Sequence record: PZ452591.1
DNA: 64,000 nt
Reading direction: 5' to 3' (one strand)
Origin: a phage
Shown piece by piece: positions 8,705-62,001 of this stretch. The stretch's first letter is position 1, and every line of letters begins with the position of its first letter. A program made the translations under genes and the position numbers. The notes under the pieces are model-generated. The model made no database searches. It was given only the letters and a program-made list of their open reading frames with translations, and was not told the DNA's origin.

Positions 8705-9883
8705 TTAAAAGTATTTTTTAAAACTCATCATAACTTTATCATCAACATCATTATCAATCTGTGCAACAAGGTAGGATGACAGTTCTACTTCTTGTGGTGC
8801 GGATTGAACATTATCAGAATTAAGATATTCACGAATCCAAGGATATGGATGTTTAACCGGAGCATCGGTAATTGGGCATGGAAGACCACACTGTTTCATA
8901 CGAGATACAGTTAAGTAATCAATAAAGCTCCACATGCTATTTGTATTTAATCCAGGAACATCGCCATCTTTAAATAAATGAACTGCCCAATCTTTTTCTT
9001 GGCGATTAACTTCCATGAAAATATCAACTGCTTCTTGTTCACACTCTTGAGCAATTTTAACCCATTCATCGCCATCAGTGCCAAGTTGAAGTTGACGAAT
9101 AATATATTGAGTGCCTTTAAGATGAAGCTGCTCATCACGAGCAATGAACTTCATAATCTTGGCATTACCTTCCATGATTTCCATGTTCTTATGGAAGTTA
9201 AAGGTACATGCAAAAGATACATAAAAACGAATAGCTTCTAAGGCATTAATAACGTGCAAACAGAGGTAAAGAGACTTCATTAAAGCACGTTTAGCTTCGG
9301 CTTCTTGTTTAATAGCTCGGTTTAAACGAAAGTCGGCATCAGGAGATTCTTTAGCTAGTTCTACAAATTCTTTAGCATTTTCCCATTCACGGGTTTTAGT
9401 CAGAACATCATCATAATAACGTCCAATTGATTCAGCACGTTTCATAATAGCTTCATCTAATACAATCTCATCAAATACCTTCGATGGATCAGTATAAAGA
9501 TTTCGCATGATATGAGTATATGAACGACTGTGAATAGTTTCACTAAAAGTCCATGTAGCAACCCATGTATCAAGACTTGGGTCTGAAATTAATGACATAA
9601 GTACAGCAGATGGCGCACGACCCTGAATGCTATCCAAAAGTGATTGATACTTCAGGTTGTTAGTAAAAATATTTTGCTGATATTGAGGAAGCTTATTAAA
9701 CTGTGCAGCATCCATCATTAAGTTTACTTCTTCGGGACGCCAGAAAAATGATAAGGACTTCTCTGTAAGTTCTTCAAATACTCGATGCCGTTGAATATCA
9801 TAACGCGCAATACCAAGACCTGAACCAAAAAACATAGGTTCTTTTAAAACATCAACTGGATTTGTATTAAAAACTGTGCTCAT
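8705..9883 (-). CDS. nrdB: ribonucleotide reductase small subunit, 392 aa, uninterrupted
   Basis: ATG at 9881-9883; single continuous ORF with no intron. Confidence 0.92.
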   Translation of the reverse strand: MSTVFNTNPVDVLKEPMFFGSGLGIARYDIQRHRVFEELTEKSLSFFWRPEEVNLMMDAAQFNKLPQYQQNIFTNNLKYQSLLDSIQGRAPSAVLMSLISDPSLDTWVATWTFSETIHSRSYTHIMRNLYTDPSKVFDEIVLDEAIMKRAESIGRYYDDVLTKTREWENAKEFVELAKESPDADFRLNRAIKQEAEAKRALMKSLYLCLHVINALEAIRFYVSFACTFNFHKNMEIMEGNAKIMKFIARDEQLHLKGTQYIIRQLQLGTDGDEWVKIAQECEQEAVDIFMEVNRQEKDWAVHLFKDGDVPGLNTNSMWSFIDYLTVSRMKQCGLPCPITDAPVKHPYPWIREYLNSDNVQSAPQEVELSSYLVAQIDNDVDDKVMMSFKKYF

Positions 9884-9934
9884 AAATTTTCCGCTTAGTT
9901 AATAGTTGGTGACTCGTCCGTGAGTCAAATTATA

Positions 9935-12756: not shown

Positions 12757-13617
12757 TTACACCGCCATCTTTCCTTTAATTGGCGGGTGAGATACATAGT
12801 TGTTAAGAACAAAATTATGCGGCTTTGCGAATTGACTCAACCAAAATACCTGCGATTCTGTGTCCCATTCATCAAATTCATCTGGAAATTTTAATTGCAA
12901 TTCGCATAAATCCATAGGTTCACGACGCAAAATTTCTTTACATTGTTCTACGTGATTCATATAGATATGAGTATTACCACCAGAAAATATCAAATCTCCA
13001 GGAATAAGATTACACATCTTAGCTACAATATGAACTAACGTAGCATATGATGCAATATTAAATGGAAGACCGAGGAAAACATCTACCGAACGTTGATACC
13101 ACTGCAAATCCAAATAGCCATTACGCACATTAAACTGATAGAACATATGACAAGGCGGTAATGCCATATATTTAAGTTCAGCTGGATTCCATGCAGAAAC
13201 AATTTGACGCCTATCATTTGGCAATTTTTTAATACGATCAACAACTTCTATAATTTGGTCTACACCGCCAAAATCGCGCCATTGTTTTCCATAAATTGGA
13301 CCAAGTTCACCGCTATGGTATCCTAAATCTTTTGCTTGATTTTCGTAATTTTCATCCCAGACTGTTTTGCCTTGAATTAATGAATCATGTTGAATTAATC
13401 GTAAATCATTGACATTTGTGCTTCCCGATAAAAACCATATTAGCTCAGCAATGCAAGCTTTCCAGGCGAGCTTCTTAGTTGTTACTGCAGGAAAACCTTT
13501 AGTTAAATCCCAGCGTAATTTAGTACCGAACAAAGCAATTGTTCCTGTGCCCGTTCGGTCATCGGTTTCATAGCCATTTTCAAAAATGTCTTTAATTAAA
13601 TCTTGGTATTGTTTCAT
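12757..13617 (-). CDS. td: thymidylate synthase, 286 aa, uninterrupted
   Basis: ATG at 13615-13617; continuous 286-aa ORF, no intron or I-TevI-like ORF. Confidence 0.93.
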   Translation of the reverse strand: MKQYQDLIKDIFENGYETDDRTGTGTIALFGTKLRWDLTKGFPAVTTKKLAWKACIAELIWFLSGSTNVNDLRLIQHDSLIQGKTVWDENYENQAKDLGYHSGELGPIYGKQWRDFGGVDQIIEVVDRIKKLPNDRRQIVSAWNPAELKYMALPPCHMFYQFNVRNGYLDLQWYQRSVDVFLGLPFNIASYATLVHIVAKMCNLIPGDLIFSGGNTHIYMNHVEQCKEILRREPMDLCELQLKFPDEFDEWDTESQVFWLSQFAKPHNFVLNNYVSHPPIKGKMAV

Positions 13618-13662: not shown

Positions 13663-14010
13663 TCAATACGGTTTAGCATCAAATTTTCTCTCAATTTCAG
13701 GCGTGAAATATAATTCTTTACCGCGTTTGGAAAAGCGACCAATAATATGATAATTATTCTCATCAAACGTAATATTACCAATATCCATAGCTTTCAACCA
13801 AATATCGATATTTCTATCCAGCTTTATGTCAAAATTCCAATACGGAGAACTATTACCGAAAATACTGCAAGCGGATTCAGTGAAACAGCTACTATAAATC
13901 TTGTCTTTAGGAACTACTAATTGATAGACACCTTTAATAAACTGAGGACCCTGCCACTTTGGCTGTTTCGCGTCTTCTTCTAATAGAATAGGGTAATAAT
14001 TAAAATTCAT
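13663..14010 (-). CDS. hypothetical protein, about 115 aa, between frd and td
   Basis: in-frame ATG at 14008-14010; fills the space between frd stop (14031) and td start (13617). Confidence 0.5.
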   Translation of the reverse strand: MNFNYYPILLEEDAKQPKWQGPQFIKGVYQLVVPKDKIYSSCFTESACSIFGNSSPYWNFDIKLDRNIDIWLKAMDIGNITFDENNYHIIGRFSKRGKELYFTPEIERKFDAKPY

Positions 14011-14030
14011 ATTTTCCGTCACGCGTTATT

Positions 14031-16253: not shown

Positions 16254-17159
16254 TTAAAGGTCATTCAAAAGGTCATCCAGGTCCGTGTCATCAGCACTAG
16301 ATGAACTGCCAGAGCTTGAGCTCATAAAATCATCTTCAGTTTTTGTTTTGAAGTCATCAACATTGAATGCATCCAAATCATCAGCAACTTTATCAGCTTT
16401 CTTAGCAGCAGTTGCAGCGGCACCGCCCATCACAGCAGTTCCCATAACTTGACCGAATTTAGTATTCAGTTCTTCAAACGATTTGAATTTATCTTTAGAA
16501 GTCATTTCAGAAAGGTCAACCATTTGTTCGAACAGTTCTTTCTGGAAAGATTCATCATCAATGTTTGGAATCGCAGATTGATTCAGGAATTTAGATTCGT
16601 CGTAGTTACTAAATCCAGAAACCTGTTTAACTTTCAGTACAAAGTTAGCACCTTCCCACGGGCAAGTTACATCAACCGGAGTTTCACCCATTTCGACATC
16701 AACCGCAATCATTGCATTGATTTTATCCCAGATTTTCTTACCGAAACGGTATTTAAATACTTTACCTTCGTTTTCTGGAGCAGCTGGGTCTTTTACAACA
16801 AGAATATTAGCCCAGTAAGAAGTTTTACGTTTAACAAGACTGTACTCTTTATTGTCAGTGTTGTACAGATCATTTTTACTGATGTATTGACATACTGGGC
16901 AAGAATCGTAATCACCATGGGTAGATGAACATGTTTCAATATACCATTTACCATTTTTCTTGAAACCGTGATTTACAAGAATTGCGAATGGTGCTTGTTC
17001 ATCATTTTTAGACGGAAGAAAACGAATTACTGCTTGACCGTTACCCGCATTATCGAGTTTCAGTTTCCACTCGCCTTTATCTTCAGAAGAAAAACCTTTA
17101 TTGCCATTCAGTTTAGCCATTTGTGCAGCAAGTTCAGCAGTAGATTTACGTTTAAACAT
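16254..17159 (-). CDS. 32: single-stranded DNA-binding protein gp32, 301 aa
   Basis: ATG at 17157-17159; matches recalled T4 gp32 including acidic C-terminal tail. Confidence 0.95.
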
Positions 17160-17215
17160 TTTATTTCCTTTTTAATTTAATTAACAGTTGGTGCTATGAC
17201 ACTTTACCTCATAGC
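17160..17215 (-). promoter_or_regulatory. gene 32 translational operator (hairpin/pseudoknot stem plus AU-rich unstructured leader)
   Basis: minus strand GCUAUGAGGUAAAGUGUCAUAGC inverted repeat followed by UUAAUUAAAUUAAAAAGGAAAUAAA-AUG. Confidence 0.6.
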
Positions 17216-17841
17216 TGGCATAATTCGCAATACTCTGGGTCTTCGAGAGGTATCCAACCTGAGTTGAAATACTTTACCATCGATTTAGCAGTTGTATCAG
17301 TTATATTTATATTACCTTTAACTCTTCGCCATCCAGGAGTTTTACCGTACAGATTAGAGGATAATAATAACTCATAATTCTCGTAAGCAATATGAGATAA
17401 TTTCCAAGACTCTATATTAGCTCGTGATGTTTTCCAAGGTCTAAAATCGTCACGGTTCATATAATTAGCCAATCTCATATGCTCTCTAACTTCCGGGTCT
17501 TTGGCTGGATGAGTTTCACCACTCACACCAAATCCACCACCAGCATATACCAGATTAAAATAGTCTGGATTATCTCTGGCATTTACTTCAAGTTGGTATT
17601 TTCGTTCTGCTTCAATAACATCCAAGTCATCATCAATTTGAATTATTTTAACGCTCGGTTTTTGAAGCATTAGCGCATTCAAAAATCTTTTTTGTTTACA
17701 TGAGCTCCAGTATTCCTTTCCGGAAGAGTCATATATTATTCCGTTCTCAAATGAGCAATTTAATTTACTACCGATATAGTAGTATGGCGGAGTCTTATTT
17801 TTGACACGGTCTTCAAATGTAAACCAATATACTATATTCAT
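17209..17841 (-). CDS. GIY-YIG family putative homing endonuclease (seg-like), 210 aa
   Basis: ATG at 17839-17841; N-terminal IVYWFTF...YYYIGS and downstream ERKYQLEVNARDN resemble the GIY-YIG catalytic core. Confidence 0.65.
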   Translation of the reverse strand: MNIVYWFTFEDRVKNKTPPYYYIGSKLNCSFENGIIYDSSGKEYWSSCKQKRFLNALMLQKPSVKIIQIDDDLDVIEAERKYQLEVNARDNPDYFNLVYAGGGFGVSGETHPAKDPEVREHMRLANYMNRDDFRPWKTSRANIESWKLSHIAYENYELLLSSNLYGKTPGWRRVKGNINITDTTAKSMVKYFNSGWIPLEDPEYCELCQL

Positions 17842-25823: not shown

Positions 25824-28808
25824 ATGGCTACTTTAAAACAAATACAATTTAAAAGAAGCAAAACTGCAGGTCAACTTCCTGCTGCTTCAGTATTAGCCGA
25901 AGGTGAATTGGCTATTAATTTAAAAGATAAAACAATTTTCACAAAAGATGACTCAGGCAATGTTATAGAATTAGGTTTAAAATATGGAGGAACAATTGAT
26001 GGTTCTTTAACTGTTAATGGAAATATAATTGGAAATTTAACAGGTAACGCTGCAACTGCAACGAAATTAAAAACAGCACGAAAAATTAATGGTATATCCT
26101 TTGATGGGTCAAAAGATATCACGCTAACTCCATCTGACATAAATGTCAATAGCACAACGTTTATAAAAAATAATGGCGAATTACCTGTTGATGCTAATTT
26201 AGATACGTATGGGCCTGTTGAAGAATATCTTGGAGTTTGGTCGAAAGCAACTTCAACCAACGCTCAACCAGCAAATAAATTTCCAGAAGAAAATGCTGTA
26301 GGTGTGCTAGAAGTATTTGTGGCCGGTCAATTTGCTGGTACTCAGAGATATACAACTAGATACGGAAATGTTTATATTCGTTCCTTGACTGCTACATGGA
26401 ACGGAGTAAATGGTCCGTGGAGTGTGTGGCGAAATATTCAATCCGGTACTCGTCCACTGTCAACAACAATTGATCTTAATGATCTAGGAGGCGCTGAACA
26501 CTTTGGTTTGTGGCGAAATAGTTCAAATTCCATTGCTACCTTTGACAGAAATTTCCCAGAAGAGGGGTCGTCAGCTCAAGGTCTTTTGGAAGTATATGAA
26601 GGTGGAAACTATTCTCGTACACAAAGATATACAACCAGATTTGGTGTTGTATATACTCGTTGTCTTGCTGCCGCGTGGGATGCTTCCGCGCCTAAATGGG
26701 GACCGTGGCAACAAGTCGGTAATGTCACACCAGCGACTTTCTATGACGGAGATCTGAATGATTTTAAAACCCCTGGGTTATATAATATTTTAGGCACTGA
26801 TGCCGTTATTAACTGTCCTACAGGTGAAGGTTTGCCGACTGTTATTGTTGGTTTGCTGGAAGTTAAACAACGTGCTTCTGGCGGTGCTATTTTCCAAAAA
26901 TTTACTACTGCCGGAACGGGTGCAACTACTCGCGATCGTATTTTTGAGCGTGCATATACTGGTGGTGTGTGGGGTGCATGGAACGAAGTATATACATCTT
27001 ACTCTCTGCCAATTACTTTAGGTATGGGTGGTATTAAAACTCAATTAGCGGAGCTAGATTGGCAAACATTTGATTTTGTTCCTGGTAGTATGTTTAGCGT
27101 TCCTTTGAACAAAATAAAGAACATGCCAGCTAATATGAATTGGGGCACGATTGACGGAAACTTAATTATGTTTTCTGTTGGTCCTAGCGAGCACACCAGC
27201 ACAGGACGTACTGTTCAGGTTTGGCGTGGAACTGTATCCCAGACAAACTATCGTTATTTTGTCGTTCGTGTGTTCGGTAATTCTGGAAATAGAACTTGCA
27301 CAGTTCGCCGTGTTGTTCTTGAAGACGGATCACATACTTGGACTGCTAAACAAGATTTTAATGGCGCAGTTAACTTCGGTGCTCCTACCAATTTTAACTC
27401 TACTGTTAACCTTAATAACACTACCACATTTAAAACAGAAGTTAAATTTCGCTCATTGAATGCATTCCGTATGTATGGCGGAAAATTTGGTACATTTTTA
27501 CGTAATGATGGAGAGAGTCTTTATATTCTTTCCACCGACGAAGATGATCAAGATGGAAACTTTAATACAAATAGACCTTTCCGTTATGAATTAAGAACTG
27601 GTGATGTTACTTTGGGTGGTGCTAGTGGTGCTAACGTTTTAAAATTAAAACGTGATTCTCTCACCGCATTTTTTGGCGGTGATATTAACATTAAAGGCAC
27701 GATGACTTTTGACGCCGGACGTTTAGGATCACGAGATTATTTTAAATTTAACCATTGGGGTGATAGTAATAATGCGCGTGATAACATTATTCAGTTAGAA
27801 GACAGCAAAGGCGCTCATTTTTCCACTGAACGTACTTTAGCGACTGGTGCAATTAAGACTAAATTTTTTGGTGAAATTGAATCCGATGGTAAATTGGTTA
27901 TTAAACGTCCGGGTGATTCTATTGTATTATCAACAACTGCTAGTAATTCTTTGCATATTCGTGGTGACATAGACGGGACTGGTAACTGGTATATTGGTAA
28001 GGGTGGTGCTGATAATGGATTAGCGTTATATAGTTATGCTACTAATGCTGGTGTATACATTACAAACGCAGGAGATATCACGCTAAGTCCAAAAGGCGTC
28101 GAAATGGCCCATGTCAATAACGTTCGATTATATGTTCATGGTGAACGTTGGACTGCTAGTCAACCAGGTGATTGGGGTAGTCAGTGGCAAGTGGAAGCGC
28201 CAATATTCGTCGATCATGGTTATGTTTCACAGGATTGTTATTATCCAATTATTAAAGGAAGAAGTGTAATCACCAATCAAGGGTTTGTAACTGCCGTCGA
28301 TCTTGGTATTCGTCGTGTCAATAACAATTGGGGACAAGCAATTATTCGTGTTGGATCTGCGGAGGCATCGCCAGCGGCTGGACACCCTAACGCGGTATTT
28401 GAATTTCATTACGACGGTACTTTCTATTCTCCTGGTAATGGTAACTTTAACGATGTGTATATTCGTTCCGATGGTCGTCTTAAGATTAATAAAAAAGAGC
28501 TAGAAAACGGAGCACTTGAAAAAGTATGCCGACTGAAAGTTTATACATACGATAAGGTTAAGTCTATTAAAGATCGTAGTGTTATTAAACGTGAAGTTGG
28601 TATTATTGCTCAGGATCTTGAAAAAGAATTACCGGAAGCTGTGTCTAAAGTTGAAGTTGATGGATCTGATGTTCTGACAATTTCTAACTCTGCTGTGAAT
28701 GCTCTTTTAATTAAGGCTATTCAGGAAATGAGTGAAGAAATTAAAGAATTGAAAACGCCTCTCTTTACTAAAATTGCTCGCAAAATTAGTAAATATTTTA
28801 AATTCTAA
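25824..28808 (+). CDS. 37: long tail fiber distal subunit gp37, 994 aa, with C-terminal intramolecular chaperone-like domain
   Basis: ATG at 25824; conserved N-terminus; C-terminal about 110 aa resembles a tail-fiber/endosialidase-type self-cleaving chaperone domain. Confidence 0.9.
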
Positions 28809-28814
28809 CAACAA

Positions 28815-28832
28815 GGGGGAAATGCCCCCTTT
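28815..28832 (+). terminator. hairpin GGGGG-AAAUG-CCCCC with short U-run after gene 37
   Basis: 5-bp G/C stem directly after the gene 37 stop. Confidence 0.45.
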
Positions 28833-28844
28833 GGAGTATAAATT

Positions 28845-29636
28845 ATGGCAGTAGTTGGAGTTCCTGGCTGGATTGGAAGTTCAGCCGCAAATGAAACAGG
28901 ACAACGCTGGATGAGTCAAGCGGCTGGTCAATTAAGATTGGGTGTTCCTTGCTGGATGAGTCAATTTGCAGGTCGCTCACGAGAAATTATTCACACGCTT
29001 GGAGCAGACCATAACTTCAATGGTCAATGGTTCCGAGATAGATGTTTTGAGGCAGGTAGTGCACCTATAGTGTTTAATATTACAGGTGATTTAGTATCAT
29101 ATTCTAAAGATGTTCCTTTATTCTTCATGTACGGAGATACACCAAATGAATATGTTCAGTTAAATATACATGGCGTAACGATGTATGGTCGTGGAGGTAA
29201 TGGTGGTAGCAATAGTCCTGGCTCAGCTGGGGGTCATTGTATTCAAAATAATATTGGTGGGAGACTAAGAATTAATAATGGCGGAGCTATTGCTGGCGGC
29301 GGTGGCGGCGGTGGCGGCGGCTACTGGAATGCCGGTATAACGAGATATAGATCTGTTGTTGGTGGCGGTGGCGGACGTCCATTTGGGGCGGCTGGCGGGT
29401 ATTCTGGAGGATCAGCTTCTACCGCGGGCACTTTGACTGGGGCGGGCATTGGTTCTAAACCGGGAAATGCGATTTATGGTGGAAACGGAGGAAATGTGGG
29501 ATCTGCTGGTGGAGCTTGTGGCGGAATCTCAGGCTCTCGTTATGCTCGTTATGGTGGCGGCGCTGCTGGTTATGCTGTCATAGGGTCCGCTCCAACATGG
29601 CAAAATGTTGGAGCAATATATGGTCCAAGAGTATAA
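28845..29636 (+). CDS. 38: tail fiber tip adhesin gp38 (T2/T6-type, glycine-rich motifs), 263 aa
   Basis: ATG at 28845; several Gly-rich blocks ([59 protein letters not shown]) as in T2-type gp38 adhesins. Confidence 0.85.
29295..29321 (+). repeat. (GGC/GGT)9 trinucleotide tract encoding Gly9 inside gene 38
   Basis: ggcggcggtggcggcggtggcggcggc read directly from the sequence. Confidence 0.9.
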
Positions 29637-29666
29637 TGTGAATAAATACCCTTAAAAGGAGGGTCT

Positions 29667-33179: not shown

Positions 33180-33329
33180 TTACTGCATGACTGTGATAAC
33201 TGTCATGATAACACGTTGAATTCCGAACGCAAGAAGACCTCCTGCTACAGCTGGAACAACGCCTAAACCCGCCAGTAAAATGCTACCAGATACTAATGCA
33301 GCGCTTGTAATACCAATGAATGGACTCAT
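33180..33329 (-). CDS. small membrane protein, 49 aa (gene 52.1 position), glycine-zipper-like
   Basis: ATG at 33327-33329 overlapping gene 52 stop as ATGA; GAGGAAA Shine-Dalgarno; not in ORF track (<60 aa). Confidence 0.45.
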   Translation of the reverse strand: MSPFIGITSAALVSGSILLAGLGVVPAVAGGLLAFGIQRVIMTVITVMQ

Positions 33330-34654
33330 TTGATTTCCTCTAAATCTTTGGTGTATTCGGTAACTACATCAGTAGTTTTCCAATATTCGTTTTCTTCTTT
33401 TTTAGCTTTAGCTTCTTCAGCAAGTTTCTTTGCTTCATCGGAAGTCATATGAAAAATATTCATTCCAACTAGTTTATCAACATAAGAAGAATACATATCA
33501 ATTTTAGAAAGTTCTTCGGTCAGTTCTTTACGAGTTTTACCCTGTACAACAATTTCACCCGAAATTACTTTCTTAATGAAATGCGCCTTGGCAAAGGCTA
33601 AACGAAAAGCTGACTCAGTTTCTTTAATTTTGTTATCAATTCGTTTTTGGACATAAGTTTTACGAACTTCAACGAAGTCTTTGATTAAATCAACTACGTT
33701 ATCGTAAACTTGTAGCTTTCCTTTCTCATTAATAACCGTAATATTCTGAGAACGACGCTCAATCAGTCCGAAGTCTTTCATAATTTTTGCATGGCGTTCT
33801 TCTTCGTTATCGCTCAAAGAATATTCTTTACGGAATTTAACTTTGAATCCAAACCCGTGCTCACCGCAAGCATCATCCCATATAATGAAGCCTTTATCTT
33901 CAAGCGGGTCTAAGATTTTACTCACATAAGTTTCACGATCATACTTATACGGAATCTCAGTGATATGCATTTGAGTTCGTGAAGTAAACTTATATTTTCC
34001 ACGAATTTCATATTGCCCATCAATTTCAACGACTTCACCACGAAATTCTGGGAATTCTACCTTCGGTTTAGTTATTTTCTTTCCTTGAAGAGCTTGCAGT
34101 ACAGCTTTCTTGACAGAAGAAACACTATGAGGAAGAATGTAAGTTGCATAACCAGTTGCAATACCGGAAACGCCATTAAGAAGAACAGTAGGAATAATAG
34201 GCAAATAGAAAGCAGGCGGAATGTGTTCTTTATCTTGATGTACCGGAGCATATTCAGTATCTTTATATACGTTATAGAAATTTTTACTTACACGAGCAAA
34301 AATATAACGACTTGCTGCTGCCTTTTGGACAGTACGAGAACCGAAGTTTCCTTGACCATCTAACAGAGGAAAGTTATTATTCCAAGTGTTAGCCATCAAA
34401 GCACCTGCGTCTTGTGCAGAGTTTTCGCCATGGTGATATCCAAGGTCCGCTACACCACCTGCGATAGAAGCGAGTTTGTGAAACTTATCTTTATTTCCTC
34501 GTGCCAAATCAAGAGCTCGAGCAATAACAAATCGTTGAACTGGCTTAAATCCATCAATCATATTTGGAATAGCACGATTTTCAACCGTGTACATAGCATA
34601 AGCCAATGCTTCATTATCAATGATACTTTTTAAATCGCGATTATTCAGTTGCAT
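33326..34654 (-). CDS. 52: topoisomerase II medium subunit gp52, 442 aa
   Basis: ATG at 34652-34654; length and position match T4 gp52. Confidence 0.92.
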   Translation of the reverse strand: MQLNNRDLKSIIDNEALAYAMYTVENRAIPNMIDGFKPVQRFVIARALDLARGNKDKFHKLASIAGGVADLGYHHGENSAQDAGALMANTWNNNFPLLDGQGNFGSRTVQKAAASRYIFARVSKNFYNVYKDTEYAPVHQDKEHIPPAFYLPIIPTVLLNGVSGIATGYATYILPHSVSSVKKAVLQALQGKKITKPKVEFPEFRGEVVEIDGQYEIRGKYKFTSRTQMHITEIPYKYDRETYVSKILDPLEDKGFIIWDDACGEHGFGFKVKFRKEYSLSDNEEERHAKIMKDFGLIERRSQNITVINEKGKLQVYDNVVDLIKDFVEVRKTYVQKRIDNKIKETESAFRLAFAKAHFIKKVISGEIVVQGKTRKELTEELSKIDMYSSYVDKLVGMNIFHMTSDEAKKLAEEAKAKKEENEYWKTTDVVTEYTKDLEEIK

Positions 34655-37835: not shown

Positions 37836-38774
37836 TTATTTAAATTGTTCAGTAACGTCTTCAACTACTTCGTATTGGCAGGTACGCATTTTAGCATCGT
37901 TGTAATCAATCGGAATTGATACTACATCGCGAGGATGAACTTTAACTTTTACAACTCGGCTGGTTGAACTGCCAAAGTGACGAATATAAGATTTAGAACA
38001 CACATGCAGACCACGAGAACAAGTTTGTGTATCATCGTCATTCACACGAGTACGTGGCATTTTAACTACTTTACCCGGACTGTTATCAAAGGTATTTGAG
38101 TGACAGTCAAAGTAATTGCTACGAACTACTTTCCAAGCATAGAAGTAACCATCTTCTGTAATTTCAATATCGTTTGCTACCAAGAAATCAAAGAGTCGAG
38201 ATACCGCTTTTTGGCTTGGGTTTTCCAGCAGATTTTCCAAGAACGGAAAATAAAATTCAAAGTTTTCACCTTTTTCCATCGAGTCAAGAATACGATCAAC
38301 CAAACCAGACCGCAATTCAATATTTTGATAGAACAAGCTTCCACCTTCAATTCGAACATCACCGGAAATATATTTTTCAACAGCGCGACGAACATTAATT
38401 TTTTGTGCCGCTTCTTCCAACTTATCCGCTACAAGCAGATTAAGAATTTCCTGGAAGTTTGAATGAGTATTAGGAGTTGCGTTATAAGTTACACCGTCAA
38501 CAGTAATTGAAATGAATTTTTTAGATGCATTCCAAATAATGTCAGATTTAGCAACTGGAGCAATAACTGCATCGCTATTAACTTTAACTGTAATATCACC
38601 GCTAATAGTAACTTTAGAGCGTTTAGCTTCTTCGGCATTTTTCAAAACACGACGGATTGTGTCAACCGATACATCCTTCCAATAAGCTAATTCCTGTTGG
38701 GTATAATTACCACTTGAATACAGTTTAACAATTTCAGCTTGTTCGTTTTTGGTCAGGCATTTAATATTGTACAT
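37836..38774 (-). CDS. rIIB: rIIB, 312 aa
   Basis: ATG at 38772-38774; MYNIKCLTKNEQAEIVKLYSSGNYTQQELA... matches recalled T4 rIIB. Confidence 0.93.
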   Translation of the reverse strand: MYNIKCLTKNEQAEIVKLYSSGNYTQQELAYWKDVSVDTIRRVLKNAEEAKRSKVTISGDITVKVNSDAVIAPVAKSDIIWNASKKFISITVDGVTYNATPNTHSNFQEILNLLVADKLEEAAQKINVRRAVEKYISGDVRIEGGSLFYQNIELRSGLVDRILDSMEKGENFEFYFPFLENLLENPSQKAVSRLFDFLVANDIEITEDGYFYAWKVVRSNYFDCHSNTFDNSPGKVVKMPRTRVNDDDTQTCSRGLHVCSKSYIRHFGSSTSRVVKVKVHPRDVVSIPIDYNDAKMRTCQYEVVEDVTEQFK

Positions 38775-38785
38775 AATTTTCCTTA

Positions 38786-40963
38786 TTAGGCCGCAAGGGC
38801 CTTCATAGTTTTAGCGATTTGGGAAACTTCATCATCACTTAAAGAGTTGCGATAACCGATGAAGTCGGAAACAATACGGAATTTCTTGGTAAACTCAGCA
38901 ACCATTTTATCACTGTTTTTTGAAGCATTATTTGATAATACATCAAAAAGATTAGTTACTGTCCAGATGTCATGACCGATGGTATCTTTTCCACCATTGA
39001 AATATACGCCCCGTAATGAACTAACTATATTAGCGAGTCGTGTATATTCTTCAGAAACTTCATCTGTACTGAAGTACTTCATCATAAAATCTAGTTCAGG
39101 ATACTTGATAATTTTATCAATATATCGTTGAGCTGAACTTGAATAACCTACATACTTATCATAATCTACATCATCAAAAGCATCTACATATAAATCACGC
39201 AGAGTTTCAAAAATACATTGGCACTGACCGAGTTCTTTTACCTTTTTCTGCAAAAGCGGACGAATAACATAAAATTCATTAATGCCAATAAGATTAGCCA
39301 TACGAATCAAAATATTCATAGATGGATGACAAAGAGATGTAGTACCATCCATAGAGAAAATATCAGAACGATGCATATACGCTACATACCCAGTAATTTC
39401 ATCTGCTTCTGATGTGAGCGTAAATAATTCCTCTTTTTCCCAGCGCCCGTCTTTAATTTCAAACTTAAATGCTGTAGCAGCTTTAGGACGAGGAGCTTTA
39501 CTTTTAACTACCTTTGGAATATAGCTTTTAACTAAAGCTTCAATTTCTGACAAATAATGAATGTTAACTTCATCACTTTCAAACATCGCCATAATATCAG
39601 GAAGTAAATCAATCTGCGATTCTACTTCTGGATTAATAAACAGAAGACGCTCATTATGATGAATATTCAAAGTGTTATTAAATTCACTATCATCTAACGC
39701 TCGTGCTAATCCACGAACAATATTAACACGATTTTTAATATTATCAATAACGATATTAATTTTTGTTGTATTAATACCAAACAGACGATAACTTGATGCA
39801 ACGGCTGAAGTTTCATGACTTTGCTTAATGCGCTTCAGTCGAGGGTCAAGATTTACTTCATACACAACTCCTGCATTGCATAACTTACTGTCAGGTTCAA
39901 ACATGCTCTGCATCTTTTTATATGACAGATTTTTAGTCGTGAATTTGACTGAATTACTAATCATATAATCTCGAGCAGAATATCCCATCTTCATCAATTC
40001 ACGGTATGTGTGACGAGGAGATGTAGATTCTTTAAATCGTTTTACATCTTCATTAAATGCTTTCTCACTGAGTTCTTTAACTCGTTCAATAATATTTTTA
40101 CGAGTACGATCATCCAGTGAAAGAGCCTCACGAGATGGAGCAATATCAAGTGAACCCATTGGAAACTTAATGTAATTCACTTCATTGCGAATGCTTAGCC
40201 AGTTACGGTCTCTAATAACACCATCGATAGGATAAACAATACCGCCATAGATAGCATATAATCCACCACGATCAGGCCAGTATCTTTCTGGATTTACACC
40301 GTAATAGTCATCAAAATCCGGAAAATAATCAATTTCGCGGTCAAGACCATTAATGATAGCCAAATCTTTGAATGGTCGCATGATATAAGAAACTTCATAA
40401 GCAAAGTTTCTAAAGTCTTTTTCTTCAACTGGAACTACGATTTCAATACCAGTTTTATCATCTGGACCCATTTCTTTTACGAATGTAGGTTTAATCTGTG
40501 GACCATCACCATCCATGTAAGCTACATAACCACGAATTTCACCTTTATGATAAGAAGTAATACTAAACGTATCAGTATAACTAAACGGAGATTTAGAACC
40601 TAAACCAAATCCGCCAATAAAGTCATTAGATTCAGCTTTAGATGAACTGAAGTATGAATTATACAACCCAGGAGAATTATCATCACCTTGAATATCAAAA
40701 TCACTCATACCCGGACCAAAATCTCGACAAACAAATCGTGGGTCTAAACGTCCAGGAACTTGTATGATAAATTTCTCTGGATTTCCATTAAGTGCATGAG
40801 CATCAATCATGTTAGTAATCAATTCACGGACTACTGCGCGAATCTTGTTTGTATATAAATCAGATGACAGAATTTTAAATACTTTAGGAGATGCTGTGAT
40901 GCTAAATGCTTTTGATTTAGAACCATTGCCAAGAATTGTTTCTTTTTCAGTGGTGATAATCAT
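38786..40963 (-). CDS. rIIA: rIIA, 725 aa
   Basis: ATG at 40961-40963; length and N-terminal ATPase-like region match T4 rIIA. Confidence 0.93.
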
Positions 40964-40973
40964 AATTTCCTCA

Positions 40974-41177
40974 TTAATTCATATTACGCTTAATAACTTC
41001 AGCAACTTCTAGTAATTCATCTTTAGTTGCAGTGTCGGATTGAATTTTATCTCTAATATCTTTAAAGCGGTTTTTAAATTCTTCGGCTTCTCCCATATCG
41101 AAAAAGCGTTGAATGATTCTATATTCTCGATGAACTGCTTTATCAAAAAGTTCTAAATTTACTTTATATGATTTCAT
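40974..41177 (-). CDS. hypothetical protein, 67 aa (rIIA.1 position)
   Basis: ORF track; ATG at 41175-41177. Confidence 0.55.
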
Positions 41178-41231
41178 TTCAATATCCTCATTTGCCCAAT
41201 TAATTATACCACATCCTTGTGGTAAAGTAAA

Positions 41232-43049
41232 CTACTGGCTCATCCATTCTTTACGAAGGTCAGCATTATCTCCCATGAGCATTTCAAAAAGCTCTTTCCA
41301 GTTCTCAGGAAGTTTAACAACATCATATACTGGATTTTGAATCATCTCACGATATTCAGATTTTTCCAAAGAGCCAAGTCCTTTAATATAACGGATGCTA
41401 TGTTTAGGTAGAGCATCTTTAGCACTCTCATATTCAGCGACTGTATAAAACCATTCTTGTTTTTTACCAATCTGTGCGATGATTACAGGAGTTTTGACAA
41501 AGCGAATTCGTCCTTGCTCAAACAGTTCTGGCCAATTACTAAAAAATCCAAGCAGAGAAGGATAAATGCTTCCTAGACCATCATGGTCAGCATCAGTCAT
41601 AATAGCAATATTATGATAATTCAAGTTTTCAGCTTTTTCACCGAGAACTAATCCAGTGATTGCGCAAATATCAAATAGTTCTTTGTTTTTAAGCATATCT
41701 GCATAAGACATACCCCAGCTATTAAGAACTTTACCACGCAATGGATAACCACCGTGAAGTTCTTTATCACGAACATCAATAAGATATCCGATAGCAGAAT
41801 CACCCTCAGTCAAGAAAAGAGTAGTGTCAGCATCTTTACCACAAAGATTCGCTTTGATATGTTTATGAACCTTAGCTTTAGAAGCCTTTTTAGCTGCTTT
41901 AGTTTCTGCTGCTTTTTCTGCCGCCAATTTACGAGCCAAAGCAGCTTCAATAATCGGCATCAGAATTGCTTCATTATTCAAAATAGCACGTGAAATCTTT
42001 TTAGCATCAAGCTGAATATGACTACGGATTTCACCAAATGGAGAAGTCAAACGCTCTTTAGTCTGAGAATCAAATCGCATGTTTTTCATATCACGAACAA
42101 ACATAACGATAGTCAAACATTCTTTGACACGTGCTTTAGTCACATCAATTTTGAACTTACGTTTGATTTGTGGAATAAGGTCTTCACAAATATCATCCAT
42201 AACACAGTCAATGTGATGGCCACCATTCTTAGTATGAATGTTATTAACGTATGTTAATTGACGAAAACCATCCGGTGAACGACCAACTGCAATAGAACAA
42301 TTTTCTTGTTCTTGAACAATAGCATGCTCATCATATTGGCGTGCATATTTCTTAAAATTGCCCTGAACCTTTTTACCATTAAAGGTAAATTGAATATCAG
42401 GATAAACTACTGCAAGTGTCTGGAGACGGTCCAGTGTAATGTCAAGATAAACCTGAGACAGCTCATTAGTTTCAAATGACATAAAATCAGGAATGAAAGT
42501 AACACGAGTTCCTTTCCATTTTCCAGGAATAGTTTCCCATGATTTATTTTCCATGCCATTTGAACAACGAACTACAATATTATTTTGACCATCACCAGTT
42601 TCACCGACAAACATCACAGAAAAAATGTTTGTCAAACTAGAACCAACACCATTCATACCACCGGTGACACGTTCTTTATCATCACCAAAGTTACCACCTG
42701 CTTTTGGAATAGTCCATGCAGCAACAGGACCAGGAATTTCTTCACCGGTAGGTGTTTTGACCATCGCTTGTGGAATACCGCGACCGTTATCTTCAACTGT
42801 TACTTGATTGTTTTTAATAGTAACATTAATTTTATTTGCGAATTTAAACTTAGTACGAATACCTTCATCTACTGAGTTATCGATAATTTCATCAATAAGC
42901 TTAACAAGACCAGGTACATACTGAACACTTTCCCATTTACCAAACAGAAAGCGCTCATGCATTTCATTAGCAGAAGAGCCGATGTACATGCCACTGCGCT
43001 TTTTGATATGTTCAATATCGCTCAGAATTTTAATTTCATTCTTAATCAT
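41232..43049 (-). CDS. 39: topoisomerase II large (ATPase) subunit, contiguous 605 aa (equivalent to T4 gp39 plus gp60)
   Basis: ATG at 43047-43049; one uninterrupted ORF spanning GHKL ATPase and Toprim regions. Confidence 0.9.
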   Translation of the reverse strand: MIKNEIKILSDIEHIKKRSGMYIGSSANEMHERFLFGKWESVQYVPGLVKLIDEIIDNSVDEGIRTKFKFANKINVTIKNNQVTVEDNGRGIPQAMVKTPTGEEIPGPVAAWTIPKAGGNFGDDKERVTGGMNGVGSSLTNIFSVMFVGETGDGQNNIVVRCSNGMENKSWETIPGKWKGTRVTFIPDFMSFETNELSQVYLDITLDRLQTLAVVYPDIQFTFNGKKVQGNFKKYARQYDEHAIVQEQENCSIAVGRSPDGFRQLTYVNNIHTKNGGHHIDCVMDDICEDLIPQIKRKFKIDVTKARVKECLTIVMFVRDMKNMRFDSQTKERLTSPFGEIRSHIQLDAKKISRAILNNEAILMPIIEAALARKLAAEKAAETKAAKKASKAKVHKHIKANLCGKDADTTLFLTEGDSAIGYLIDVRDKELHGGYPLRGKVLNSWGMSYADMLKNKELFDICAITGLVLGEKAENLNYHNIAIMTDADHDGLGSIYPSLLGFFSNWPELFEQGRIRFVKTPVIIAQIGKKQEWFYTVAEYESAKDALPKHSIRYIKGLGSLEKSEYREMIQNPVYDVVKLPENWKELFEMLMGDNADLRKEWMSQ

Positions 43050-43104
43050 CACTTATCCTCGTTTGGTTTCGGGAATATTATACTCCGGTAATCATAAAGC
43101 TAAA

Positions 43105-43116
43105 GGCCCGAAGGCC
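43105..43116 (-). terminator. hairpin GGCC-UUCG-GGCC with flanking A/U runs
   Basis: between the lipoprotein ORF stop and the gene 39 start. Confidence 0.5.
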
Positions 43117-43118
43117 TT

Positions 43119-43379
43119 TTATTTAAAACGAATAGTTGAATCCTTAAAGAACAGCCCAGAACATACTGTTCCTTCTACTTTCTGCCCAGTAGGTCCAATA
43201 GCACGAAATCCAGTATGTTGGAAATCATTTTCAGAACAACCGAACCAGTTATATCCAGTGATTTCAATATTAGTAAAACCGCTTGAAGACAAAACTTTGG
43301 TTGCATTATCAGCATCAGTACATCCTACTAAAGACACTACTAATACTAATGCTGCAATAGAACGATTAATATATTTCAT
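43119..43379 (-). CDS. putative lipoprotein, 86 aa
   Basis: signal peptide with lipobox LVGC (MKYINRSIAALVLVVSLVGCTD...). Confidence 0.55.
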   Translation of the reverse strand: MKYINRSIAALVLVVSLVGCTDADNATKVLSSSGFTNIEITGYNWFGCSENDFQHTGFRAIGPTGQKVEGTVCSGLFFKDSTIRFK

Positions 43380-43381
43380 AA

Positions 43382-43558
43382 TTACCCTTTAAGCAAGTCG
43401 TAAAATCCGCCATTCACATGCTTAGGAGCGGAAACTAACCGAACAGCCAACCGATGACAATCAGGACATACATCAGTATCTCTTTCAGAAATTTTCTTGA
43501 TTTTTTCGTATTCTTTTGCGCAGTCTTTTGATTGACATTTATAATCATAAAGCGGCAT
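43382..43558 (-). CDS. zinc-ribbon protein, 58 aa (CxxC...CxxC)
   Basis: MPLYDYKCQSKDCAKEYEKIKKISERDTDVCPDCH...; ATG at 43556-43558; not in ORF track (<60 aa). Confidence 0.45.
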   Translation of the reverse strand: MPLYDYKCQSKDCAKEYEKIKKISERDTDVCPDCHRLAVRLVSAPKHVNGGFYDLLKG

Positions 43559-44569: not shown

Positions 44570-45061
44570 TTATGCATAGCGAGCTTTGCTGTAGTGTTTA
44601 ATCCAACTTTCAGGAATGACTTTGTATGTTCCTAAAAATACCGCGTTGTATAACTTAACGCCATCTTCTACCCATTGATCAGTAATGTATGCACACATGG
44701 CGCGAGTACGGTTAACAACCCCTTCCTCACCTTCAGTAAATTCAAACTCATAAGGAGCAACGAACTTAATAGCTTGACCGAGTTTCCACTTAAAGTCTAC
44801 GCCTACATGCGAAGTATCAATCGTTTCAATTCCTTTAGCAGGAACAGCTTTTAAAAACGCAGACTCAAGAAATTTCGCACGAACATAGCCAAACTGGGGT
44901 TTAGACTTTCCATCTTTAGGAATGATACGCACTTTTACTTCAGAATCTTCATCTTTAACACCGTGTTTAAGCTGAATGCTTACAACTTCAACCAATTTTC
45001 CTGCTGCTTTAGAACGGGATTTATCAGATACACGAGCAATTTCACCGATATTAATAATCAT
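44570..45061 (-). CDS. motB: MotB-like DNA-binding protein, 163 aa
   Basis: ATG at 45059-45061; size and position match T4 motB; shares a C-terminal domain with the next ORF. Confidence 0.65.
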   Translation of the reverse strand: MIINIGEIARVSDKSRSKAAGKLVEVVSIQLKHGVKDEDSEVKVRIIPKDGKSKPQFGYVRAKFLESAFLKAVPAKGIETIDTSHVGVDFKWKLGQAIKFVAPYEFEFTEGEEGVVNRTRAMCAYITDQWVEDGVKLYNAVFLGTYKVIPESWIKHYSKARYA

Positions 45062-45137: not shown

Positions 45138-45680
45138 TTAATTCAAAATAGCTACCACTGCACTACGAGGTACTACGCTAAAATCACCTGCATGAACAAC
45201 GTTCAGAAGTTCAACACCATCTTCAATCCACTGGTCTGTTACCCAACCACAGACCGAAATAAATGGGGTCTTGATAGCTACTGCACGAGTCAAAAGGTCA
45301 GTAGGATCAACTTCTTGGAAGAGGATAATCTCTGCTTCAAAGACTATAGTTTTAATTACTTCATCATTATCTAAGCGATGTGCTCGAATCACGTAAGCTT
45401 TATTCTTATCATACCAATTACTTTTTGAAAAACTTTTAACCACAAACTCACCTTCACCAAAAACACTGGTCAATGCTTTATAACCCAAATCTAGTTCAGT
45501 AGTTTTAATTTCAGTTTCAACCAGTTTGTAGGTTTTGCCAGTTTCGATGGTCCGAGCAGTCATAAATGTTTCCTTAATTTCTAATGGTTTAACAAGAGTG
45601 CCGTACATGCTTGCTATATCCATATCAAACGGTTTATCTACAGGATTCGGTGTGTATTCAGGATTATAATTAAATTTCAT
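45138..45680 (-). CDS. MotB paralog, 180 aa
   Basis: ATG at 45678-45680; C-terminal ...TDQWIEDGVELLNVV... parallels MotB ...TDQWVEDGVKLYNAV... Confidence 0.55.
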   Translation of the reverse strand: MKFNYNPEYTPNPVDKPFDMDIASMYGTLVKPLEIKETFMTARTIETGKTYKLVETEIKTTELDLGYKALTSVFGEGEFVVKSFSKSNWYDKNKAYVIRAHRLDNDEVIKTIVFEAEIILFQEVDPTDLLTRAVAIKTPFISVCGWVTDQWIEDGVELLNVVHAGDFSVVPRSAVVAILN

Positions 45681-53871: not shown

Positions 53872-53879
53872 TATTTATA
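53872..53879 (-). promoter_or_regulatory. late promoter TATAAATA for soc
   Basis: exact octamer on minus strand about 30 nt upstream of the soc ATG. Confidence 0.6.
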
Positions 53880-53924
53880 ATAAATTCTCGCGGCTTTTAA
53901 GTCGTCGTTTAAATAAACGAGCTA

Positions 53925-54443
53925 TTAATAGCCTCGATCTTGACGTGCGAAATTTTCGGCATTTTTCAGATAATAAAGTTTAAAGATTTCTTCAGCTGAC
54001 ATTCCAAGAGCAATAAATTTATTCATGAAAAAGTGAAATTGGTCAATCAGTTCAAATTTAATTTCAAGCTGATCTTCGGGAGATAAATCTTGAATTTTCT
54101 TGGATTGCATTTCAGAATAACGTTTCTTCCAAGGTTTCCATACAGCAGAAGCTTCTTTTTCACCATTACTCATACCACCAAGAGAAGTATATAGCTCGCG
54201 AGTTTCGTCTGCGATATAATCGTCTTGGTTTCGCAGCCAAGCAAGAACTTCTCCTGCGGTTTCAAGTGAATCAGGATGACGATTTGTTTCTGGCTTATCA
54301 TTAGCCAAACGAATCTGTAAAGACCGCTGCATATCAAGCATAACCTGCAATGGGTCTTTTTCATCACCGAGAATATCCCGGTATTCATTTTGAGCTTTAT
54401 CAACACCTTCGATCAAATGAGCGCATTCATTAAAGTGAGCCAT
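53925..54443 (-). CDS. 56: dCTPase/dUTPase gp56, 172 aa
   Basis: start set at ATG 54441-54443 (MAHFNECAHLIEGVDKAQNEY...) with AAAGGAAAA Shine-Dalgarno; the track ORF extension begins at GTG and covers the promoter. Confidence 0.85.
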   Translation of the reverse strand: MAHFNECAHLIEGVDKAQNEYRDILGDEKDPLQVMLDMQRSLQIRLANDKPETNRHPDSLETAGEVLAWLRNQDDYIADETRELYTSLGGMSNGEKEASAVWKPWKKRYSEMQSKKIQDLSPEDQLEIKFELIDQFHFFMNKFIALGMSAEEIFKLYYLKNAENFARQDRGY

Positions 54444-54477
54444 TATTTTTCCTTTCAATTCATGGGTTAGTAGATTA

Positions 54478-54502
54478 ATTATACAATAAATATATAAAGC
54501 AA
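54478..54502 (-). promoter_or_regulatory. MotA-dependent middle promoter (MotA box TTGCTTTA, 11 nt, -10 TATAAT)
   Basis: minus strand ...ATTGCTTTATATATTTATTGTATAATTAA... about 35-60 nt upstream of the gene 56 ATG. Confidence 0.5.
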
Positions 54503-54514
54503 TAAGGAGGACAT

Positions 54515-54715
54515 ATGGTACAAAAATTAATGGCACTTGTTGATGCCATAAAAGGTAATAAGAAACGTATAGCTTTTACTATTTCTGCTATGGTAGGAAT
54601 TTTACTCTGGAACTTTATTTTATCACCTGTTGCAATTGCTCATGGTGTTAATATTCCAGTAGTTACTCTTGATACATTCGTAGATTTAGCATTTGCTTTA
54701 GTTGGGTTAATTTAA
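54515..54715 (+). CDS. small hydrophobic ORF, 66 aa, plus strand, in the 56-61 spacer
   Basis: ATG at 54515 with strong AAGGAGG Shine-Dalgarno 4 nt upstream; two predicted transmembrane segments; opposite strand to all neighbours. Confidence 0.3.
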   Translation: MVQKLMALVDAIKGNKKRIAFTISAMVGILLWNFILSPVAIAHGVNIPVVTLDTFVDLAFALVGLI

Positions 54716-59170: not shown

Positions 59171-60344
59171 TAAATTCTTCCATATCACTTAACTGTTCAA
59201 GGTCAGTTTCTAAATCAGCTGCTGATTTACTTTTACTTTCTGGAGATTTAAATTTTTCAACCTTTGAGTTAATCAATTCATCAACTTCAGCTTCAACAAT
59301 TTCATTACTATCAATAGCACCTAACTGATAAGCACGTTTAATAGCATCTCGGAATGGTTGATGCTTAAATAAAGGACCCCAGAATGTAGTGCAGTTAGTA
59401 TCTTTTGCACGCCAAGATTTTTCTTCGCGAATCATCTCGCCGGTTTCTTCATCAAGAAATTCACGAGCATACCAGCCATTTTTAGGTTTTACTACAAATC
59501 CTAATTCTAGAGCCATATCTAACAATCCAGAATAAGGATCGATACCACCGTCAAATTTAACATCAATAAAGAATTTACTTTTTTCTTTAACGGTACGAGA
59601 TTTTTCTACATTTAGAACAAATTGATACCCCTGAAGATCAGAACCATCTTTAATCTGACGCTTACCAATAATGAATACAGTATCAGCTGAATACATTACG
59701 CCTGTACCACCTGTCATCACGGTTTTACTAAACATTTCAATGGTTTCAATTGTATGGTTAACCGCAACACATGGAATATTTTTAATGCTAAAATAAGGAG
59801 TAACAATACGGAATAATGACTTCAGTGATTTAGCACGAGTCATATCTGCCACAGATTTTTCATTCAAGGCATCTTCCGTTTCTTTCTTGGAAGCCATATT
59901 ACCAATTGAGTCGATGAATACAATAACCTTTTCACCACGCTCAATAGCTTCAAGCTGATTCACCATATCAATTTTCAGTTGTTCAACTGACTGGATTGGT
60001 GTATGAATTACTCGTTCCGGGTCAACTCCCATGGATCGCAAATAAGCTGGAGTAATACCAAATTCGCTATCATAGAATAGACAAACCGCGTCAGGATATT
60101 TGTTTAAATATGCCGCAACCATAGTCAAAGACATATTTGATTTAAAGTGTTTAGAAGGACCTGCAAAAATGGTTAAACCAGACTGCATACCGCCATCAAT
60201 CGCGCCGGAAATAGCGATATTAAGCATTGGAATTTTTGTACGGATTACATCCTTTTCATTAAAGAATTTAGATGTAGTCAGTTCAGCAGTCATTTTAGAA
60301 GTGGAAGCTTTAATCAAACGGGATTTTAAATCTGCAATAGACAT
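59163..60344 (-). CDS. uvsX: UvsX recombinase (RecA homolog), 393 aa
   Basis: ATG at 60342-60344; Walker A GPSKHFKS; matches recalled T4 UvsX. Confidence 0.93.
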   Translation of the reverse strand: MSIADLKSRLIKASTSKMTAELTTSKFFNEKDVIRTKIPMLNIAISGAIDGGMQSGLTIFAGPSKHFKSNMSLTMVAAYLNKYPDAVCLFYDSEFGITPAYLRSMGVDPERVIHTPIQSVEQLKIDMVNQLEAIERGEKVIVFIDSIGNMASKKETEDALNEKSVADMTRAKSLKSLFRIVTPYFSIKNIPCVAVNHTIETIEMFSKTVMTGGTGVMYSADTVFIIGKRQIKDGSDLQGYQFVLNVEKSRTVKEKSKFFIDVKFDGGIDPYSGLLDMALELGFVVKPKNGWYAREFLDEETGEMIREEKSWRAKDTNCTTFWGPLFKHQPFRDAIKRAYQLGAIDSNEIVEAEVDELINSKVEKFKSPESKSKSAADLETDLEQLSDMEEFNE

Positions 60345-60421
60345 TCATTTTTTCCATAGGCATCATTATATTTTCCTCACTGGTTAAAGATAGAGTAATT
60401 ATAACACAATAAATTTAGGCA

Positions 60422-61264
60422 TTAATCAACTGCTATTGGATGAATAGCATTAAACTTATGAAATGCTTCTGATTTTTCTTTACGCGAAACGCACATGCGA
60501 AGAACCTTTAGTGGTTCATCTTCTTCACCCAACGATTTTCGTTTTTCAATATTCGATGTTTTCCAACGAGCTTGCTCTGGAAACTCTCTATTGATTTGCT
60601 CAAGCGCTCTATTATGTTTAGAATTACTACGAATTGAACTACACCCACCAGGAGCGTGTGATTTTCCAGATACAACTAGATATTTGAACAAGGCCAAATG
60701 CGGATAACCTTGATTAATTAAATTGAGAAATGCATACATATCTTCACATAAATCAATTTTTCCATACCCAATTTGTTCTGTCGTAAGTTTTCCGAGGTCA
60801 TACCATGTATTCGTGAATCCATATGAGTTTTCACGATAATTACCCCAAGATGAAGTAATTTTAAAAATTGGTAGACGAGCATGACCGTGATAATACCCGC
60901 AATCCATAGCATCCTCAACGTATTGAATTAATTCATAGAACTGTTCACGAGTTAATTGATTAATTTTATCTACGCGCCGTTTATCGTCTCTCTTTCGTAT
61001 TGAACTCATACGAATAGTAGTATCATCGTCAATCATCCAGATTCGTTGACCTGCATACATATCAGTAATTGCTTTACGAGTACCGGCAATTCCATTAACA
61101 TCATCAGGAATAGTTACAATTTTAGCTCTAGACCCATAAGCATCATAATAAGCTTTTTCTTCGTGTTCACGTACTACAATATGTGGTTCATAATCAGTCG
61201 GAAACATATCAAGGGCAGAAACTGCCCCTACACGTTGATAGCTTGGAATTACGAATTGAATCAT
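60422..61264 (-). CDS. GT-A-fold glycosyltransferase (DxD motif), about 280 aa, at the uvsX-42 locus; candidate DNA hydroxymethylcytosine glucosyltransferase
   Basis: in-frame ATG at 61262-61264 overlapping gene 42 stop as ATGA; WMIDDDTT motif; occupies the T4 beta-gt position but is shorter. Confidence 0.6.
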   Translation of the reverse strand: MIQFVIPSYQRVGAVSALDMFPTDYEPHIVVREHEEKAYYDAYGSRAKIVTIPDDVNGIAGTRKAITDMYAGQRIWMIDDDTTIRMSSIRKRDDKRRVDKINQLTREQFYELIQYVEDAMDCGYYHGHARLPIFKITSSWGNYRENSYGFTNTWYDLGKLTTEQIGYGKIDLCEDMYAFLNLINQGYPHLALFKYLVVSGKSHAPGGCSSIRSNSKHNRALEQINREFPEQARWKTSNIEKRKSLGEEDEPLKVLRMCVSRKEKSEAFHKFNAIHPIAVD

Positions 61265-62001
61265 TTCCACTCACCGTTATAATCTTTTTTCACAATATGA
61301 GTTTCGCCAGTATTCCACCAATGATCAACCAAGTAAAAATGACGAGAATATACATGAAGACTTCCAACATTCCATATAATAGAACCTGCTTTATACTGAC
61401 GAGTTGAATCGCCTGCATTCAAATCAGATACTAATTTATCTAATACGTATTTTTGCCATGCATAATCATTACGGAATCCGAAGACCACGTCATTTGAGCG
61501 CATGTTAACAACCGCATTGATTTTCTTGTCACGAATTAAGTATTGTACTGTATTCGTACACATGAAATCTGACATACCATCTTTATTGTAGTCAAATTGC
61601 ATAGATGGACGAGTATAAATCATGATACCACGTCGAGAATCAGGATTTTGACCAAGTTCAGCTAAACACATATCATACTGGGCATAGTTATCTTCTGACC
61701 AGATAGCCCAACCATAATTCGAGTTAATTTCACCTTTAGAAGATGCTACTTGTTGCCAAATCTTCGGTGTTTCACCCGGAATATCTTTAACGAACAAGCT
61801 CTTAGATTTATACCATTCAAGTTCACGCTGAATGTATTCATCATTAAGAGCGCCAAAAATAAACGGTTCATCTGCTACAAATGATGCGCCAATAATTTCA
61901 ATAGTTTTAACGCCAGTTTTATCAACTACGAAATCTTTTTCCTTTAATGCAAGCCCCAAATGAAGACGGATTTCTTCAACTGTCATAGAGTCACTAATCA
62001 T
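61261..62001 (-). CDS. 42: dCMP hydroxymethylase gp42, 246 aa
   Basis: ATG at 61999-62001; thymidylate-synthase-like fold; matches recalled T4 gp42. Confidence 0.93.
   Translation of the reverse strand: MISDSMTVEEIRLHLGLALKEKDFVVDKTGVKTIEIIGASFVADEPFIFGALNDEYIQRELEWYKSKSLFVKDIPGETPKIWQQVASSKGEINSNYGWAIWSEDNYAQYDMCLAELGQNPDSRRGIMIYTRPSMQFDYNKDGMSDFMCTNTVQYLIRDKKINAVVNMRSNDVVFGFRNDYAWQKYVLDKLVSDLNAGDSTRQYKAGSIIWNVGSLHVYSRHFYLVDHWWNTGETHIVKKDYNGEWK

Follow-up and report, generated by a model that had tools for sequence, protein, structure and literature searches.

An uninterrupted gene for the topoisomerase II large subunit in a T-even phage, with short coding DNA at the place of the T4 mobA/bypass insert

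Gene 39 of this phage, which encodes the large subunit of DNA topoisomerase II, is a single uninterrupted reading frame on the minus strand of the 64,000-nucleotide stretch of sequence record PZ452591.1 that was analysed (the window). Downstream of it lie rIIA.1, rIIA and rIIB; upstream are homologues of 39.1 and 39.2 and, further on, of goF and cef (Table 1). Between rIIA.1 and gene 39 is a spacer of 54 nt (41178-41231), the same length as that between rIIA.1 and gene 60 in T4; it contains no ORF, only a promoter-like site that is placed where it could serve rIIA.1 and rIIA. A reading made earlier from the sequence alone had stressed that no mobile-endonuclease ORF lies in this spacer. That is true, but it is no test of whether the gene was interrupted, as the mobile endonuclease of T4 sits between genes 39 and 60.

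On the upstream side, a GC-rich hairpin (43102-43119, minus strand; AAAGGCC-TTCG-GGCCTTT with a UUCG loop) starts at the stop codon of the 39.1 homologue and is followed, before the gene 39 Shine-Dalgarno sequence, by GCTTTA-12 nt-TATAAT; read by eye, this arrangement resembles a terminator and then a MotA-type middle promoter. The 39.1 homologue has 86 aa and a lipoprotein-like N-terminus (MKYINRSIAALVLVVSLVGC...), while in the T4 record the annotated 39.1 product is just 65 aa long, though its DNA is collinear with the window. The 39.2 homologue has 58 aa, compared with 45 aa in T4.

Table 1. Coordinates of gene 39, its neighbours and related features in the window.
Feature	Position	Strand	Basis or remark
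segG, retained	17212-17841		99.5% aa identity to T4
gene 52, GyrA-like medium subunit, partner of gp39	33329..34654	-	tblastn with T4 gp52; phrog_551
rIIB	37836-38774	-	
rIIA	38786-40963	-	
rIIA.1	40974-41177	-	Pfam T4_RIIA1, E = 1e-33
promoter-like site TTTACT-17-TATAAT, upstream TG	41203..41231	-	consensus match only
gene 39, topoisomerase II large subunit, uninterrupted	41232..43049	-	605 aa; ORF, Pfam, phrog_543, T6 and T4 alignments
64-nt 'empty site', codons E474-S494	41568..41631	-	blastn breakpoints; T2 identity; published 64-nt deletion
Gly491 codon GGT, equivalent to the T4 GGA take-off codon	41577..41579	-	codon table, alignment
Shine-Dalgarno GAGGA	43056..43060	-	read from sequence; 6 nt before the gene 39 ATG (43049)
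39.1 homologue, upstream of gene 39	43119-43379	-	
39.2 homologue, zinc-ribbon	43382-43558	-	

The list of open reading frames gives gene 39 as 41232..43052, which is 606 aa when counted from a GTG. The ATG at 43049, one codon further on, is preferred as the start because the Shine-Dalgarno sequence stands 6 nt before it and because the resulting 605-aa product begins with MIKNEIK, which is the N-terminus of gp39 in T4, T2 and T6; the GTG at 43052 was dropped on the same grounds. By a rough estimate, stops make up about 5-6% of random codons at such a base composition, so that a frame of 605 codons with zero internal stops is not attributable to chance. The claim of the sequence-only reading that the large subunit is a single 605-aa ORF is thus borne out, with the ATG as the preferred start, and a check of the codons revealed neither an internal stop nor a frameshift that would require bypass.

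The domain architecture of gp39 is that of a GHKL ATPase followed by a transducer, a Toprim domain and a C-terminal tail. Pfam places HATPase_c at residues 47-149 (E = 1.9e-9, with a score of 38.4 bits where the cutoff is 26.4), the second domain of GyrB (DNA_gyraseB) at residues 250-384 (E = 1.5e-13) and TOPRIM_C, above threshold, at residues 519-604. The Toprim model itself scores below its gathering threshold on residues 410-492 (17.5 bits against 23.1), a sub-threshold score that is common to the whole T-even gp39 family; the fold is visible in the solved structure of T6 gp39 (PMC11461880). The catalytic glutamate (E415, in EGDSA) and the DxD motif (D486-A-D-H-D490) are contiguous on one polypeptide. 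Over its full length gp39 matches phrog_543, 'DNA topoisomerase II large subunit' (E = 3e-295), and beyond T6 its matches in the PDB are Topo IIα/β, yeast Top2, ParE and GyrB (E = 1e-59 to 1e-36). The GHKL ATPase/transducer/Toprim architecture is common to gp39, to bacterial GyrB/ParE and to the N-terminal halves of eukaryotic Topo II, from which the phage version differs in being compact and in having a short GyrA-like partner, the 442-aa gp52.

The closest protein of known structure is gp39 of phage T6 (PDB 8ylu chain C and five further entries), which aligns from 1-605 to 1-605 with no gaps and is identical at 603/605 residues, the substitutions being Q526H and I527V (H and V in T6). T2 gp39 is identical at 602/605 residues, with three that differ. 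At the nucleotide level the gene has 44 differences in 1818 positions from T6 and 69 in 1818 from T2. The T6 protein, for which cryo-EM structures are available (PDB 8ylu/8yo1 etc.; Nat Commun 2024, PMC11461880), is reported to be active in ATP-dependent DNA relaxation (PMC11461880), and by its identity to T6 gp39 the protein of this phage is probably enzymatically active as well. The length of 605 aa and the gene order 39.1 - 39 - rIIA.1 - rIIA are shared with T6 and T2. In contrast to the window, both have an additional ORF that separates 39.1 from 39.2 and is 372 nt long in T6 and phage 107 and 318 nt as annotated in T2. Many close relatives have this ORF (at 2986-3357 in L001 and 4600-4971 in L007, for example; the junction in the window is 43379-43382), and T4, like the window, is without it. 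Most of the best DNA matches come in two pieces; an indel inside gene 39 was considered as the cause and refuted, the break being due to this extra 372-nt ORF upstream of the gene.

A cognate GyrA-like partner is encoded in the same genome. In a tblastn search of the window, T4 gp52 aligns over 442/442 aa at 99.1% identity, and the product matches phrog_551 (E = 5e-220). The topoisomerase II of T2 and T6 consists of two subunits, gp39 and gp52 (Nat Commun 2024, PMC11461880), and the pair in this phage would form a two-subunit type IIA topoisomerase in the same way, for which the A2B2 arrangement is taken from the T6 structural work (PMC11461880).

In T4 (NC_000866) the corresponding protein is divided into gp39, of 516 aa, and gp60, of 160 aa when spliced across the annotated bypass. 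Aligned to these, the window protein is collinear with gp39(1-473) and then gp60(29-160): residues 1-473 are 98% identical to T4 gp39 1-473, and residues 474-605 are 95% identical to T4 gp60 29-160. The last 43 residues of T4 gp39 (474-516) and the first ~26 of T4 gp60 (1-26) have no counterpart in this alignment, and the large subunit is here one ORF, not two with insert-derived extensions. In blastn, window 43600->41632 aligns with T4 5881->3911 and window 41567->40900 with T4 2793->2126, so that the breakpoints are window 41632 = T4 3911 and window 41567 = T4 2793. Between them lie 64 nt of ordinary coding sequence in place of a 1117-nt insert in T4, which is made up of the mobA cassette and the 50-nt bypass; the absence of an insertion at the T4 split site is thereby confirmed. 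The left breakpoint falls after A473 and the right one at the end of S494, that is, at G491 plus 9 nt. The 64 nt do not differ from T2 gene 39 anywhere in this stretch (100% identity), and 35 of 48 positions (73%) are identical to the homologous region borne on the T4 insert.

The flanking coding DNA of T4 genes 39, mobA (60.1) and 60 is 96-98% identical to that of the window, and the encoded enzyme core is alike; the differences lie in what the insert brings. It adds a 43-aa tail to T4 gp39 and gives T4 gp60 a new N-terminus of ~30 aa together with a recoded homologous region, carries the gene for MobA, an HNH endonuclease (in the reference T4 record this gene is a pseudogene), and introduces a 50-nt coding gap with a GGA-UAG take-off, a hairpin and a GGA landing codon, none of which is present in the window. 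The ATPase and Toprim regions are contiguous here, as the sequence-only reading stated; its implication that T4 is split between the two does not hold. The split point falls inside the Toprim fold, between E415 and D486-A-D-H-D490, with the bypass directly after the latter motif, and the published work likewise places the T4 insertion within the Toprim domain (PMC11461880).

At the take-off position of T4 the window reads GAT GGT CTA GGA AGC (D490 G491 L492 G493 S494) straight through, whereas T4 has GAT GGA / UAG...50 nt...GGA / TTA GGT TCT. Gly491 is thus encoded by GGT and followed by CTA, with no GGA take-off codon and no UAG behind it. Searches of the whole window on both strands with the T4 50-nt gap gave zero exact matches for 12-mers and, for 10-mers, a few matches at scattered, unrelated positions. 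The RNA of 41530-41640 folds no more strongly than shuffled sequence (z = -1.1) and shows no take-off hairpin, while the equivalent region of T4 folds into the strong GGAUAGCCUUCGGGCUAUC take-off hairpin (z = -2.35). The combination of a 50-nt gap, matched GGA codons, a stop after take-off and a stem-loop is not found, and the claim that no translational bypass operates here stands after the search for take-off and landing codons and hairpin. The mRNA of gene 39 would accordingly be read conventionally into a 605-aa GyrB/ParE-like polypeptide, and recoding would be unnecessary.

The structure of the T4 insert and of the alleles that lack it has been described by Manning & Atkins (bioRxiv 10.1101/2022.08.31.505936). 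In their account the MobA element is an insert of ~1100 nt that deletes 55-75 nt of the 'parental Topo2L' (64 nt in the HY01 example); its 5' end lies at AA 466-473 and its 3' end just past D490/G491, or 9 nt further in clade 1, and the insert brings along a diverged version of what it deletes, with 67-81% identity to the parental sequence. The breakpoints, the 64-nt length and the 73% identity found here agree with this account, the right breakpoint with the 3' end given for clade 1. The 'parental Topo2L' alleles, such as those of RB14 and of the parent of HY01, match the window allele in their 605-aa numbering, 64-nt segment and breakpoints and differ from it in nothing of substance, so that the window holds one more parental allele. 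The uninterrupted gene is treated as the parental state both in that work and in the T6 study (PMC11461880), in line with the earlier suggestion that it is ancestral. On this comparison, 41568-41631 is the vacant site at which, in T4, the mobA/bypass homing cassette is inserted and splits the gene. No mobA or remnant of it lies between the halves of the gene, and tblastn with intact T4T MobA as query (E <= 1e-3) finds no MobA homolog, relocated or otherwise, in the 64 kb.

The site includes the MobA nick/recognition region identified in the literature (bioRxiv 10.1101/2022.08.31.505936). The same preprint reports, citing Bonocora et al. (2011), that in T2 MobA nicks the region of the 64-nt site and homes the split gene and the bypass into that phage, and also that the bypass shields an occupied allele. 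As its 64-nt site matches T2 at every position, the window allele is probably susceptible to nicking by MobA and, during a mixed infection, to homing of the cassette.

How common is the uninterrupted gene? A 201-nt query across the junction (41500-41700) matched 499 records of the phage collection, of which 456 (~91%) have the uninterrupted junction and 43 the T4-type insert. An uninterrupted gene 39 is thus the norm, in about nine in ten T4-like phages, and the T4 split with its ribosome 'hop' is a rare exception. The state found in the window is already known, in the majority and structurally characterised.

Other homing elements of T4 are missing too. Compared with T4, the window has no nrdB intron/I-TevIII, no mobE with nrdB.1, no td intron/I-TevI, no segF and no segA, the positions of the missing elements being 9207-9210, 9883-9939, 13068-13069, 53879-53925 and 60332-60422. 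Counting mobA, six of the seven T4 homing elements checked in the covered interval are missing and segG is retained. By this inventory the genome is poor in homing endonucleases, like T2.

Almost certainly, 41232-43049 is an intact T-even gene 39 that has never met MobA, is conventionally translated, is paired with gp52 and has in 41568-41631 an unoccupied cassette site; no data within the analysis speak against this. The rival that survives best, though very improbable, is that of a clean revertant: the cassette of mobA and bypass would once have been present in an ancestor and would have been removed exactly when, in a co-infection, homologous recombination brought in an empty allele. Such an exchange would leave no scar, T-even genomes are mosaic, with no relative of the window in the collection above ~96% identity over 24 kb, and cassette decay and 'hit and run' are described in other clades (Manning & Atkins, bioRxiv 10.1101/2022.08.31.505936). 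Against these points, nothing is left of the C-terminal or N-terminal extensions that the insert would have given, and the 64-nt site is of the parental type, being 100% identical to T2 and only 73% to the insert-borne region. The empty state is moreover that of the large majority (456 records versus 43), the identity to T2 and T6 suggests a place among the parental alleles, and the lack of most other T4 homing elements as well fits a lineage that they have visited little. A cryptic recoding or a pseudogene, with the 605-aa reading an artefact of ORF calling, has next to no probability, since no support for it was found and it is opposed by the lack of any stop or frame change in gene 39, by the gapless end-to-end alignment with only 2 substitutions to T6 gp39 (which has itself been expressed and purified and has a solved structure), by RNA structure at the site no stronger than shuffled (z = -1.1) and by the lack of any 12-mer of the bypass gap in the window.

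At most, the phage may serve as a natural naive recipient for cassette homing, because of the seven T4 homing elements checked it has one alone and because MobA would meet the same target in it as in T2; that the site is instead a scarless revertant is less likely. For annotation, this means that one 605-aa topoisomerase II large subunit should be called and that no bypass or split need be sought. The gene is also another example in support of the view that the split gene and ribosome hop of T4 are derived, imposed by a homing endonuclease and in the minority (43/499). From published work, the intact, T2-identical target predicts that the cassette would be gained when a MobA-positive phage infects the same cells.

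Judged from the window as a whole, the phage is a mosaic Tequatrovirus that is T2/T6-like in its homing elements, its glucosyltransferase and genes 37/38. A 282-aa beta-glucosyl-HMC-alpha-glucosyltransferase (60422-61270, minus strand; phrog_842, E = 1e-88) occupies the place of segA and beta-gt in T4, which implies a DNA glucosylation of the T2/T6 type. No alignment with T4 is obtained for the distal tail-fibre region at 25978-29642 (the C-terminus of gene 37, together with gene 38), and a T4-type gp38 is absent from the window; both would suit adhesins arranged as in T2/T6.

The window lacks the dam methyltransferase gene (T4 16846-17625), and tblastn with T4 Dam finds none in it. At the dam-less junction (54483-54504) gene 56 (53925-54536), which has diverged to 78% nt identity with T4, adjoins sequence that matches T4 from 17725, a point downstream of dam and before gene 61. 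Two ORFs on the minus strand have no T4 counterpart at their positions, one of 176 aa between the cd.2 and cd.3 homologues (3491-4021; phrog_3710) and one of 119 aa between td and frd (13663-14022; phrog_1928). A further minus-strand ORF, of 180 aa (45138-45680), adjoins motB (44570-45061) in a region that is not alignable in DNA to T4 motB.1/motB.2. It has a MotB-like C-terminal segment (residues 116-178; phrog_1671, E = 4e-17), and its equivalent in T6 is annotated 'C-terminus similar to motB'.
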